A stretch of DNA of 64,000 bases from Octopus sinensis (taxonomy: Eukaryota), in NCBI RefSeq assembly GCF_006345805.1, contig NC_043006.1:87730001-87794000 (forward strand), in the 5' to 3' direction. The notes beneath the pieces were generated by a model. It was not told where the DNA came from and made no database searches. It saw only the letters and a program-made list of their open reading frames with translations. The translations under genes and the position numbers were made by a program. This document shows, piece after piece, positions 21,536-48,309 of this stretch (positions are counted from its first letter, which is position 1; every line of letters begins with the position of its first letter).

Positions 21536-21964
21536 AGATAAGAAGTTTGTTTGTAAAGCACGTGGGTGAATATATAAGAAAATAGTAAGTGTGAAAAAAC
21601 GACAGAAGGCTTAATGTTAAAAAATATATATATTTGTGTCAAAATGTCTGGAGAATATTGGAAAAATTTTTTTTCCTTTCCTTAAAATGACATAATTTTA
21701 AAATTTAAGAAATTACCGGTTTCGCGTGTAGCTTTTCAAATTTCTTGTGACGTTATGTTTATATTGCATGAAGTTATCGTTGTGTTTATTATCAGGAGAT
21801 TTCTAAATAAGGGGAGGTAGTGAGTGATTTCTTCCGGTGTAAGGGAGATAATCGCTTAAAAATTTTTTTCCCTTTTCCCTTGTTAATTCTCTGTGTCAGT
21901 ATGTTCGGATGGTTGAGTCGGGGTTTATTGAAAAGTACAAACCCAGACTCAACCATCCGAACAT
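21536..21964 (-). mobile_element. Penelope-like terminal repeat fragment in (TA)n
   Basis: CpG-retaining island with a hammerhead motif at 21707-21746 and a terminal 26-bp inverted repeat at 21901-21964. Confidence 0.6.
21707..21746 (-). ncRNA. Minimal type I hammerhead-like motif, U3-A8 core
   Basis: Minus strand AAGAAAT-TTGAAAA-GC-TACAC-GC-GAAA-CCGG-TA-ATTTCTT: 7-bp stem I, 2-bp stem II, palindromic stem III, GUA site. Confidence 0.65.
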
Positions 21965-22376
21965 ATATATATATATATGTATATAATATATATGTATATG
22001 TATATATATATATATGTATATATATATATATATATGTATATGTATATATATATATATGATATATATATATATATATATATGTATATGTATATATATGTAT
22101 ATATATATATATATATATAGTATATATATATATATGTATATATATTATATATAATAGTATATTATATATATATATATATATATATATATATTATATAATA
22201 TGTAATATATATATATATATATGTATATATAGATATATATATATGTATATATATGTATTATATATATATATATATATATAGTATATTATGTATATATATA
22301 TATAATATATAATATATAGTATATATATGTATATATATTATATATATATATATATATATATTTATTCTATAGAAGG

Positions 22377-22425
22377 AGCTTCTACAGGACTAGAACTGTT
22401 TCATCAAAAGAAATCATCAGGAAGC
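22377..22425 (-). ncRNA. Type I hammerhead motif, inverted copy
   Basis: Minus strand GCTTC-CTGATGA-TTTCTTTTGAT-GAAA-CAG-TTCTAGTC-CTG-TA-GAAGC. Confidence 0.6.
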
Positions 22426-22472
22426 TTCCTGATGATTTCTTTTGAATGAAACAGCTCTAGTCCTGTAGAAGC
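22424..22472 (+). ncRNA. Type I hammerhead motif
   Basis: GCTTC-CTGATGA-TTTCTTTTGAAT-GAAA-CAG-CTCTAGTC-CTG-TA-GAAGC: canonical core, stems I and III paired, weak stem II, GUA site. Confidence 0.7.
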
Positions 22473-24018
22473 TCCTTCTATAAAATAAATTAATTTACTC
22501 TGCTATGTATTGAGTACCTTATTACTGTGGTTAACCCCGACTCAACCCGGGACATAATATATATATAATTATTATATATATATATATATATAAAGCGGAC
22601 GTTAAACGATGATGATGATGATACACATATATATATATATATACACACACATATATATATATACACACACACATATATATATATATACAACACCACATAT
22701 ATATATATATATATTATATATATATACACATCTCTATATATATATATTATATAAAATACATGCTATGCACAGCTATATATACCTATTGTCAAATACAGTG
22801 TGCTGCAATACATGTGTAAAAGCTAAAAAGAAGGAATCAAACTTGGAACTATTACCATGATTGTCTTTAACTTCTTAGATAACATCATCTTATTCAATAA
22901 AGCATGTGATCATTATATGATTCAGAAAAACAAGACTCATAAGAACAATGATAACACCAGAATGAAAAAAGAGTGGGAGATATAACAATTCTGTTATTTA
23001 TTCATATAATAAGCTGTTTGACAAATAACGAATAGAACAATTTTGTTCATAAACATATCGTTTGGTTTCCTTAATAACATAAATATAGGAAACATGCACA
23101 AATACTTAAGTTGATATTTTTAAGTGTAATCCTTGCAGAAGAATATGTTGATGATGATATATGAATGATACAGAGGTATTTATAGAATATACATACAAAT
23201 GTAAAAAGTTAGATGTGCATACAACCACTTTGCACATATTTATGCATTCATATATCTCTGTGTACATACATTTCTTCACACTGATGCATGCTTTCCAGGA
23301 TAATTTTCATATTCACAGTGCATTTATACATGCAGAAGCATAAGCACAGACATATATATATATATGTGTGTGTGTGTGTATATATATATATATATATATA
23401 TATATATATATATATATAATATATATATATATATATATATATATATATATATATATGTGTGTGTGTGTGTGTGTATATATATATATATATGTATGTATAT
23501 ATGTATGTATGTATGTATATGTAATCACTATGTGTGGTAGAAGAATTTATTATTAGGATTACGTTATACTTTCAATGCAGTGAGGAGAGCTGAAAATATA
23601 TATTATTTCCTACTTGTACATAATTTACTGCAACAAGCAATGGAAAATCTATATATTTTCCTTCCCTTCACACTTAGAATAAGGAATTTTGGATAGATTG
23701 ACAGTGAGAATATGTTAACATAAATCTCACTTCAGATTCACAAAAGCTATTCATATTTTAGACCTTCATAATGAATGCAGGACTCACAGAAATATCTTAA
23801 AGTACCTACGTGTTACAAGTACATGGTTTCTTTTCCCCTCTCACACACACATATACACATGTAGTAGTTGAAAAGTGCCAGGATAACTCCAGTTTTGAAT
23901 AAATAAACTTTCCATGTATTGCATGTTCTTCTTCAAGTTGCTCATCCTAAATGTATAATGAATAAAATTAACAAACTCGCAAGCACAAACACAAATGAAT
24001 ATATATATATATATATAT

Positions 24019-45859: not shown

Positions 45860-45898
45860 TATATATATATATATATATATATATATATATATATATAT

Positions 45899-46712
45899 GC
45901 CACTTTTTACACCAGCACTGAAGTGTCCTCTCCAGTTTTGTGCAGGCCTGGGCTAGAAATAAGAAAATCCTGGGTAGCCCAATTGTCAGGATTCCTCTCT
46001 CGACCTTTCTGACGTAGTCCAAAGGAGTGCAGAGCATTATGTTTGGCACCAGCTTGGTTGCAGGAGCTGCCGGAAGAGTATCAAGTCAAACACTAAACCG
46101 CCTTTGGGGCTCCACTCCGGATTTCTTTGAAGGTTGTCTCCTTTCCATAACCCTGGATAGGGACCCATACCAGGTACTATCAGCCGGAGCCAGCTGAGCC
46201 TGGGACTTTTGTCAGGCAGGGTCGTCACTCCCCGAAGTAGTGAAGAAATTCGCTACCAAGGCTTGGACATGTTAGCCGTATGGAAGATGGCAGAATCCCC
46301 AAGGACATACTCTACGGAGAGCTTGCTTGGGGAACTAGGTCTGTGGGAAGACCATTCTTACGATACAAGGATGTTTGCAAAAGGGACATGAAGGCCTGTG
46401 ATATCAATATTAGCAACTGGGAGGTTGTTGCCAGCAACCATGGAGGATGGTGACGTACCGTAAAAGAGGGAACACAAAGGAGTGACATAGAGAGAGAGGA
46501 GAAATGGAAAGACAAAAAAAGACGTCAACAAGAAACTATGACATTACAACCAGCCAGGCAAAGTCTTCGCTACATTTGCGGCACCTGCCAGAGGGAGTGT
46601 TTGTGACTACACAGCCACAGCAGATGTATTAGGACATGAAATGTAAAAGCCGAACTAGATTATTTTAAGCACAACTCCATTGTCTCCCAAGACAAAAATG
46701 ATGCCAACAACA
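45899..46712 (+). mobile_element. RTE-clade LINE derivative, putative 5' UTR fused to 3' end
   Basis: From 46262 reads LGHVSRMEDGRIPKDILYGELAWGTRSVGRPFLRYKDVCKRDMK...YICGTCQREC, typical RTE C-terminus; (CAA)n-like tail; upstream ~350 bp is GC-rich and non-coding. Confidence 0.75.
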
Positions 46713-47692
46713 CAGCGCATATATATATATAATCTTAAAATAAAAAACCACAAATCTTGCTGATACAGCTACCCAGGGTTTCCTGGTCAAAATAATAATT
46801 CATTCTGCCAATTTTCATGCTGAAAACAAGACTGCTTGTCAGTTGTCTTCTGAGCAGACAACGTTTAAACAAGAGACACTTGTAAAGATGACAAGGAGAA
46901 AAACAAAAGGGAGAAAACCAAAATTACAATAATTTTAATGTCAAGAAATATTTGGAATGGCAGTCTCATATTTATAATGGGGCCCTAGAAGATAGCAGCT
47001 TTACTGATAAAATCTTCTACAATCCCTCACCTCCTTTATCATCTGGTCATAAGAATAGGTCTTAGAAAGTTTTATGGTTCACCCCCGCTCCTTTCTTCAT
47101 TAATGTTAGAACAAATGTAGATAGAGGATTCTTGCACTTAGTAGATATCCACTTCCCTAGAACACAAGAGACAGATACATGATAAAACCCCAACCCTTAT
47201 TCAGGTACTTTTTGAGTGGGATGGTTCAAGGTTTCAGCACATTGATTTTGTTCTTGAAATAAGTTTTGATTAAATTACCATAGTTTGACTGACAGAGTGA
47301 CAGAGAAGTTGGGTTCTTGTAAATACAGCTATCCAAGATTTGTGGATTTTAATTTTACAAGATAAACTGGTCAAGCGATTTTCTACTTGTTGAAGCATTT
47401 ACCACATTATATATCATTGCTATTATGCAAAAGTGTTGTAAGTCCAACACACTGCTGTTTCAGAAAATGAAGAAATAGCTTCACCATTTCATAGCAAAGC
47501 CATTGTACTACACCTTGACAATTTTTGATATCTTGGCATCTGAAGTAGCTGAATATGGTAGTTTGACCAAATGAACCAGCTATTGCAAGCAAAAATAAAT
47601 ATTGAATAAGACACATTTGGCCAAATTTGGACATACAGTTTAACATAACAGCAACGATATATATATATATATATATATATATATATATATAA

Positions 47693-48309
47693 TAGAAATA
47701 TTAAAATTACTAAGTCTCTCTAAAGGAGATTACGACAGCGTTACTGGAAATTAATAGTTATCGCCATACTAATATGGCAGTCTTATAAATATAAGACTAA
47801 AGCTGTCGCTGATTAGCTCCATGAGGCCATCGCCTTAAGCTAGCTATTTGACACACAAACTGCGTCCATTATAAACCTTCAAATAGCTAGCTTAAGGCGA
47901 TGGCCTCATGGAGCTAATCAGCGACAGCTTTAGTCTTATATTTATAAGACTGCCATATTAGTATGGCGATAACTATTAATTTCCAGTAACGCTGTCGTAA
48001 TCTCCTTTAGAGAGACTTAGTAATTTTAATATTTCTAGGTAAATAAAGACTTCGAACTGGGACGATCAGTAGTGACACCTGCAAGTCTGACTACGCTGCA
48101 TTGATAAGGGGCAACAACCCTGAAACGTCGTCTGTAGCTGTCTGACTGGCAGGATGAAGCGGCTGACCTCCCTTGTTCGAAGGTTTATAATGGACGCAGT
48201 TTGTGTGTCAAATAGCTAGCTTAAGGCGATGGCCTTATGGAGCTAATCAGTGACAGCTTTAGTCTTATATTTATAAGACTGCCATATTAGTATGGCGATA
48301 ACTATTAAT
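47693..48309 (+). mobile_element. Hammerhead-bearing 329-bp repeat, 1.3 tandem units plus inverted 5' copy (retrozyme/Penelope-like)
   Basis: 47880-47980 repeats at 48209-48309; 47693-47880 is the reverse complement of the unit across its junction; flanked by (TA)n. Confidence 0.85.
48095..48138 (+). ncRNA. Type I hammerhead motif, U3-A8 core
   Basis: GCTGCA-TTGATAA-GGGG-CAACAA-CCCT-GAAA-CGTCG-TC-TGTAGC: 6-bp stem I, stem II, short stem III, GUC site. Confidence 0.72.

Follow-up and report, generated by a model that had tools for sequence, protein, structure and literature searches.

Probable hammerhead ribozymes with a U3-A8 core pair in two retroelement families of Octopus sinensis

Introduction

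When two unrelated repeats carry the same paired change in a catalytic core, has selection kept a working ribozyme in each, or have both decayed in the same way? The question is raised by a 64,000-nt stretch of the Octopus sinensis genome (NC_043006.1, positions 87,730,001–87,794,000; hereafter, the window), in which two motifs resemble hammerhead ribozymes. Their cores, TTGAAAA at the 21707 locus and TTGATAA at the 48095 locus, both depart from the canonical CTGANGA at positions 3 and 8 together, as an initial annotation had pointed out and as we confirm. That annotation also proposed that the shared change reflects selection rather than decay, and that the two repeats are independent of each other. 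The host genome is 2.7 Gb in size, has ~35% GC and abounds in (TA)n; copy counts given below are pattern matches across the genome.

From the sequence evidence assembled here, we consider it quite probable that each motif is a type I hammerhead belonging to a Penelope-type retroelement whose family has U3-A8 as its fixed state. Cleavage of tandem precursor RNA probably takes place in dimers, and selection acting on master copies has likely preserved the 3-8 pair.

Results

Two type I hammerhead motifs lie in the window

A descriptor scan of both strands of the window, with positions 3, 7 and 8 left free, returned six candidates, among which only two (A and B) have a helix I of at least 6 bp. 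A stricter descriptor gave two matches, whereas 500 order-2 Markov shuffles averaged 0.01 (one match in five shuffles, two matches in none). Rfam, applied to the whole window at its gathering threshold, returned no match; the prediction that canonical CUGANGA searches would miss these motifs holds for that search.

Motif A is a minimal type I hammerhead on the minus strand (21707..21746), supported by the scan, the shuffles and 891 genomic pattern matches. Its helix I pairs 21746–21740 with 21713–21707 (7 bp), and the core TTGAAAA at 21739–21733 reads U3-U4-G5-A6-A7-A8-A9. Helix II consists of 2 bp and a 5-nt loop (GC-TACAC-GC), followed by GAAA; next to position 9 lies a G10.1-C11.1 pair, with no extra base between 9 and 10.1. 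That pair and the extra base are frequent, though not invariant, in the minimal hammerheads of Penelope-like elements. Helix III is formed by the palindrome ACCGGT, the cleavage triplet is GUA, and the predicted cut falls 3' of the A at 21714.

Motif B, on the plus strand (48095..48138), is likewise of type I, and is supported by covariation in addition to the scan and shuffles. Here, helix I pairs 48095–48100 with 48133–48138 (6 bp), and the core TTGATAA at 48101–48107 reads U3-U4-G5-A6-U7-A8-A9. The 4 bp helix II, closed by a G·U pair (G-C and A-U in relatives), precedes GAAA and a short, near-palindromic helix III (ACG-T-CGT); the cleavage triplet is GUC, and the predicted cut falls 3' of the C at 48132. 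Both motifs satisfy the core boxes N3-UGA-N-N8-A and GAAA...UH with position 3 paired to position 8. Both also carry palindromes in helix III—ACCGGT in A, and ACGT, ACATGT and ACGTCGT variants across B—whose duplexes have energies of -8.3 kcal/mol for A and -4.7 kcal/mol for B.

U3-A8 is the consensus of both families

The genome contains 891 exact matches to the family A motif pattern (control: 0), frequently as outward-facing pairs with 0.1–5.5 kb between them. U3-A8 is present in 887 of the 891, and C3-G8 in none. The four copies without U3 carry C (two copies, forming one inverted pair), A (one) or G (one), while no copy lacks A8. The family B pattern has 107 matches; A8 is found in 100 of the 100 listed copies, position 7 is variable, and position 3, as read at 30 loci, is U in 28 and C in one, a microsatellite interrupting the last.

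Tabulating positions 3 and 8 in this way, as the initial annotation had suggested, thus establishes U3-A8 as the consensus of each family. It does not amount to proof of selection: copies of a young family inherit the state of one master, so counts within a family cannot show it. We therefore rejected within-family copy counting as a test of selection; comparison between families is needed. The counts do dispose of another explanation, namely that the motifs in the window arose as chance matches or by random double mutation in families with a C3-G8 consensus. With 0.01 matches expected by chance, C3-G8 absent from all 891 family A copies and A8 in every listed B copy, this origin is refuted, and we give it next to no credence.

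Core states across the genome and the B superfamily

Core states were counted genome-wide using one generic pattern, with the reversed pattern as a control. Raw matches number 12,553 for C3-G8 (control 652), 16,423 for U3-A8 (control 2,368), 11,668 for U3-G8 (control 1,280; a count inflated by one out-of-register family with an A6U change) and 2,312 for C3-A8 (control 1,123). U3-A8 is therefore about as frequent as C3-G8 in the host genome. The raw U3-G8 count was rejected as a measure of wobble cores, as it consists mostly of the one out-of-register C3-G8 family.

This A6U family is Penelope-like and has 6,211 exact matches; its core is CTGTTGA, with C3-G8 intact, in 27 of 30 loci (L137–L166, L284–L287). 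Upstream lies an open reading frame (ORF) encoding a reverse transcriptase (RT) and a GIY-YIG domain, the RT being 28–35% identical to that of family A. Either A6U is tolerated or cleavage is dispensable in this family. A related change, A6C, has been reported to cause a sharp loss of Mg2+ activity in vitro (PMC7151607). Separately, a U4C core (CCGAYGA) recurs in B-type subfamilies (L227, L248, L258, L260, L265 and L276).

Freeing positions 3, 7 and 8 in the family B pattern defines a B superfamily of 3,803 matches (control 7). A hand count of the first 100 listed, all from one contig, gave 50 U-A, 27 U·G, 20 C-G, one C·A and two C·U.

The 3-8 pair is likely selected between families

Among 29 superfamily representatives, the 3-8 pair is U-A in 15, C-G in eight and U·G in six, and is unpaired in none. 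Across the helices of these representatives, 95.5% of cells are paired, two-sided changes affect 11 of the 13 pairs, and slid controls reach 30–54%; for helices I and II, two-sided changes occur in 10 of 10 pairs. Covariation in A was judged by eye only in relatives (helix II GC..GC as against GT..AC).

An unrooted superfamily tree was built with columns 3 and 8 removed, from 48 of 58 rows (ten were omitted for truncated or chimeric flanks). It requires at least seven changes of state, and its starred branches force at least three for U-A. Inside a U·G clade, a starred branch unites one U-A family (L211) with a U·G family (L169) as sisters. Another U-A family, L214, has flanks near-identical to those of the U·G family L223; these sister families are a natural test pair.

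Position 7 is C in many superfamily families, so that G8A is there a CpG transition. The largest C-G family includes 18 C3·A8 copies; on its tree, these are interspersed with 14 C3-G8 copies (11 changes, compared with an average of 10.7 after shuffling), a scatter that suggests decay after insertion. As far as sampled, G8A appears to found new families on a U3 background and not on a C3 background. Pairing of 3 with 8 is thus likely selected between families. Tolerance of U·G and not of C·A, with CpG decay as an internal control, provides indirect evidence that Penelope-type hammerheads are selected for the active fold.

Could the same pattern arise without catalysis? The motifs may no longer cleave, the fold serving as a recognition signal for a Penelope protein or being a mere passenger, and U3-A8 stemming from AT-biased mutation in the masters. 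The host genome has ~35% GC and each of the two changes is a GC-to-AT transition, helix II of A is minimal, and the A6U and U4C families proliferate; Naiad elements, moreover, are described as spreading without a hammerhead (bioRxiv 2021.04.23.441226). However, G8A being a CpG change, mutation bias predicts C·A families to be at least as common as U·G families, whereas C·A is seen only as scattered copies and U·G is fixed in several families. Position 7 varies freely, and the 3-8 pair is reported to form in the active conformation (PMC3884650). We regard a non-catalytic origin of the pattern as distinctly improbable.

Several observations nonetheless weigh against selected, dimeric cleavage. 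Firstly, as to folding, helix II of A has only 2 bp and the surrounding 111 nt fold no better than shuffles (z 0.36), while the minimum free energy fold of B is inactive, with core bases paired. A metazoan minimal hammerhead, even when dimeric, was weakly active in vitro (PMC4209133). Secondly, altered cores do spread, both in the A6U family with its 6,211 matches and in the B-like U4C families, and several families have U3·G8, a single change, as their fixed state. Thirdly, the sampling has limits: the 29 representatives were hand-chosen and are related by descent, positions 4–6, 9 and 12–16 were fixed by the search patterns and hence are not evidence, and the C·A scatter test concerns one family on a poorly resolved tree. 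The proposal of selection over decay stands in part: U3-A8 is the consensus of both families and pairing between families looks selected, while the single change U3·G8, which has become fixed too, does not represent decay.

Family A is likely a Neptune-like Penelope-like element

The window copy of family A is the 5'-truncated 3' end of an element, comprising pseudo-long terminal repeat, one-sided tail and ORF end (21534..21926, minus strand; 88–95% identity to the element ends at L061–L071). At the truncation point lies a short, 42-nt inverted piece (21924..21965, plus strand) encoding the last residues of the endonuclease at the ORF end. TA arrays flank this copy (21534–21965) on both sides, and the tail is one-sided in that query bases 1–40 match at one end only.

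In nine of 11 longer A loci (L061–L071), a fragmented ORF encodes an RT, a CX4CX2C linker and a GIY-YIG endonuclease, and ends ~150 nt upstream of the hammerhead. Pfam recognizes the RT (RVT_1, E 1.2e-7); GIY-YIG scores E 0.019, below the cut-off. The linker preceding GIY-YIG, CGRSNCATC, fits the CX2-5CxxC form described as common to Neptune and Nematis (bioRxiv 2021.04.23.441226). Marks of endonuclease-bearing (EN+) Penelope-like elements (PLEs) are also present: an inverted 5' segment, a one-sided tail and a (TA)n target. By its architecture, then, family A is likely a Neptune-like PLE. Insertions of both A and B lie in (TA)n and have inverted 5' arms; the 450 nt downstream contain (TA)6 at 28 of 30 loci for A and at 17 of 30 for B, compared with 21% of random window positions.

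U3-A8 families tied to an ORF number four (A, a close relative and two others), and their RTs are 57–90% identical to that of A. That all four fall in one RT lineage suggests a single origin there, and within this lineage U3-A8 is probably one inherited trait. An A-related subfamily (L016, L017, L023, L024, L127 and L181) has C17, a helix I 3' strand that is one base shorter and an unpaired U before the core; it includes an inverted pair, L181, with U3·G8.

Family B fits a non-LTR retrozyme

The window copy of family B comprises a monomer and a partial second unit with a long helix I extension, ending in (TA)n (47879..48309, plus strand; fold z -6.0; 107 pattern matches). Its inverted 5' arm (47693..47851, minus strand), found by repeat search, adjoins a (TA)n array and is 159 nt long, with 100% complementarity to 47879–48037. 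The monomer is non-coding and spans 330 nt in the window and ~360 nt in other copies. The window copy has one core only; at other loci, tandem units are spaced by 358–359 nt (L032–L035), and in relatives by 348–360 nt. In length, self-pairing and tandem units, family B fits the type of retrozyme without long terminal repeats (non-LTR), whose monomers span ~170–400 nt. No sequencing run recorded as RNA was found to carry the repeat, whereas four contig sets presumed to derive from RNA cover it. Among these, one 349-nt contig that runs back on itself was considered as an RNA circle and rejected, as tandem DNA fits equally.

No autonomous partner for B emerged when all retrieved loci were searched by tblastn using proteins of the A and A6U lineages, and PLE fragments occur near B at a low rate that is similar beside other families. 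At one locus (L037:1098–1300), an A-lineage RT fragment (62% identity) is fused directly to a B monomer that shares its orientation. This junction could be a template switch, and as such a hint at the partner of B.

The same junction bears on whether A and B are independent. Conceivably, the B superfamily arose from the terminal repeat of A's Neptune lineage and inherited U-A, with U·G and C-G as reversions; all four ORF-linked autonomous U3-A8 families belong to one RT lineage, one B copy directly abuts an RT fragment from the same lineage, and the superfamily tree is unrooted. Yet A and B show no sequence similarity (blastn, best E 0.08), several long, separate branches of the B superfamily are C-G families, and the minimum of three changes to or from U-A on starred branches excludes a single origin without later change. 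We hold common origin to be unlikely. The case for independence is accordingly mixed: sequence gives no link between A and B, and some sister families of B are C3-G8, while A shares its U3-A8 with three families of its own RT lineage.

An ORF1-only element upstream of B-type ribozymes

At two B loci, a ~1.7-kb insert lies directly upstream of the ribozyme. The inserted element is represented more widely at L217–L276 and L297–L316 (examples are L073:2330–4130, and L218:1498–2841 on the minus strand). The window B copy contains the empty target site (48066..48082, plus strand), a stretch that is duplicated around the insert in other copies. The insert carries a single ORF of ~450 aa with a CX2CX4HX4C knuckle. 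This ORF1-like protein has no Pfam match, and no homologue at E 0.001 among proteins of near length; its Atlas look-alikes are CCHC and ZCCHC3-type RNA-binding proteins (0.90–0.93), a lead only. The element has at least 114 matches, many without stops and some in tandem arrays that consist of unlike copies, and 166 exact 3' ends.

Among the first 30 of these 3' ends, 16 have a B-type hammerhead immediately downstream (13 identified by script, three by eye), seven precede a target duplication and a further copy, and seven lie elsewhere. Another 24, picked for having no listed ORF match (two repeat earlier loci), divide into 15 upstream of a hammerhead, four with a duplication and a further copy, and five elsewhere; no RT was found within 4 kb upstream of these 24, using the RT of a long interspersed nuclear element (LINE) from the window as the query. 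Insertions fall 21–38 nt upstream of the core in divergent B-type subfamilies, and full copies are surrounded by duplications of 11–17 bp. A tree of 25 ORFs shows six changes of target subfamily, and starred sisters occupy different targets; these switches point to repeated target-specific insertion. The ORF1-only element is thus likely a target-specific, non-autonomous non-LTR retrotransposon. It may resemble Tx1-type site-specific elements.

More tentatively, and as a possibility that we judge rather less likely than not, the B superfamily may be engaged in a live compensatory walk through C-G, U·G and U-A at a catalytic tertiary pair, parasitized by an ORF1-only retrotransposon that uses the B ribozyme for RNA 3' end processing and for aiming. 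Cleavage by the B ribozyme would form the 3' end of the read-through RNA of the ORF1-only element; a short stretch of target sequence retained at that end would then direct the following insertion. If so, one retroelement exploits the ribozyme of another for both processing and aiming. An element that targets a ribozyme repeat may merit separate study; an open-access literature search (supplements excluded) returned no report of an element targeting retrozymes, which does not show absence from print.

Other features of the window

Whole-window repeat search was dominated by microsatellites. A nearly intact RT ORF of a non-LTR retrotransposon (12210–14497; Pfam RVT_1, E 1.9e-27) lies 3' of an (AAG)n array. 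The stretches 50244–51923 and 53368–53565 hold near-perfect direct repeats, ~950–960 nt apart, together with a 198-nt inverted copy 2.7 kb off, and long, near-perfect palindromes lie at 24903–25210 and 55387–55734 (arms of 154 and 171 nt). Broken ORFs at 19479–20221 and 44797–45591 have motifs suggestive of Tc1/mariner transposases.

Discussion

A possible route from tandem transcript to new insertion

How might such motifs act? In the model of Cervera 2014, a lone helix III is too short for stability, and neighbouring motifs would pair through their palindromes. Dimer cleavage of tandem transcripts would then yield unit-length RNA, which a Penelope RT and endonuclease could reinsert; for B, the proteins for reinsertion would come from a partner in trans. 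The states seen across families suggest that cores may shift between C-G and U-A through a tolerated U·G wobble. The window copies of A and B, being solitary and truncated, are probably inactive.

Of the hammerhead-like motifs counted here, the majority lack a CUGANGA core, and canonical searches therefore undercount badly in such genomes.

Comparison with known systems

U3-A8 in these two families is not new in kind. A natural C3-G8 to U3-A8 covariation, earlier shown to be active in vitro, has been published (Perreault et al. 2011, PMC3088659), and U3-A8 is described in the hammerheads of Cercyon PLEs of Schistosoma mansoni, with ~1,300 matches (Cervera and De la Peña 2014, PMC4209133). The swap being known, the finding as first written adds examples. 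A search of open-access literature, supplements excluded, gave no report of octopus hammerheads or of fixed U3·G8 PLE families; absence from print is not thereby shown.

The covariant hammerheads of PMC3088659 carry the same compensatory change as octopus A and B. As presented there, they are isolated database examples, whereas the octopus motifs form high-copy retroelement families with an intermediate state. The Cercyon elements (PMC4209133) are closer: like A, they have a minimal type I hammerhead in the terminal repeat with U3-A8 and a palindromic helix III, and, like the octopus copies, they occur as opposite-strand pairs and mostly as solitary, truncated copies. Octopus A differs in its host and PLE lineage (Neptune-like linker), in its 2-bp helix II and in lacking an extra base between 9 and 10.1. 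A further difference is that U3-A8 is about as common as C3-G8 in the octopus genome; the portion of PMC4209133 drawn on here makes no mention of fixed U3·G8 families.

Family A resembles Neptune-clade EN+ PLEs, as described by Craig et al. 2021 (bioRxiv 2021.04.23.441226), in its RT, CX4CX2C linker and C-terminal GIY-YIG, and also in its inverted 5' segment, one-sided 30–40 nt tail and (TA)n targets. Family B, for its part, resembles the metazoan non-LTR retrozymes (Cervera and de la Peña 2020, PMC7229834; Li et al., bioRxiv 10.64898/2026.07.22.740005) in its non-coding monomer of 330–360 nt, type I hammerhead, strong self-pairing, tandem loci and Penelope-style insertion marks. It differs from these retrozymes in belonging to a superfamily with variant cores (U-A, U·G and U4C) and in that B-type repeats harbour a target-specific, ORF1-only insert, a feature that does not figure in the portions of the retrozyme papers drawn on here.

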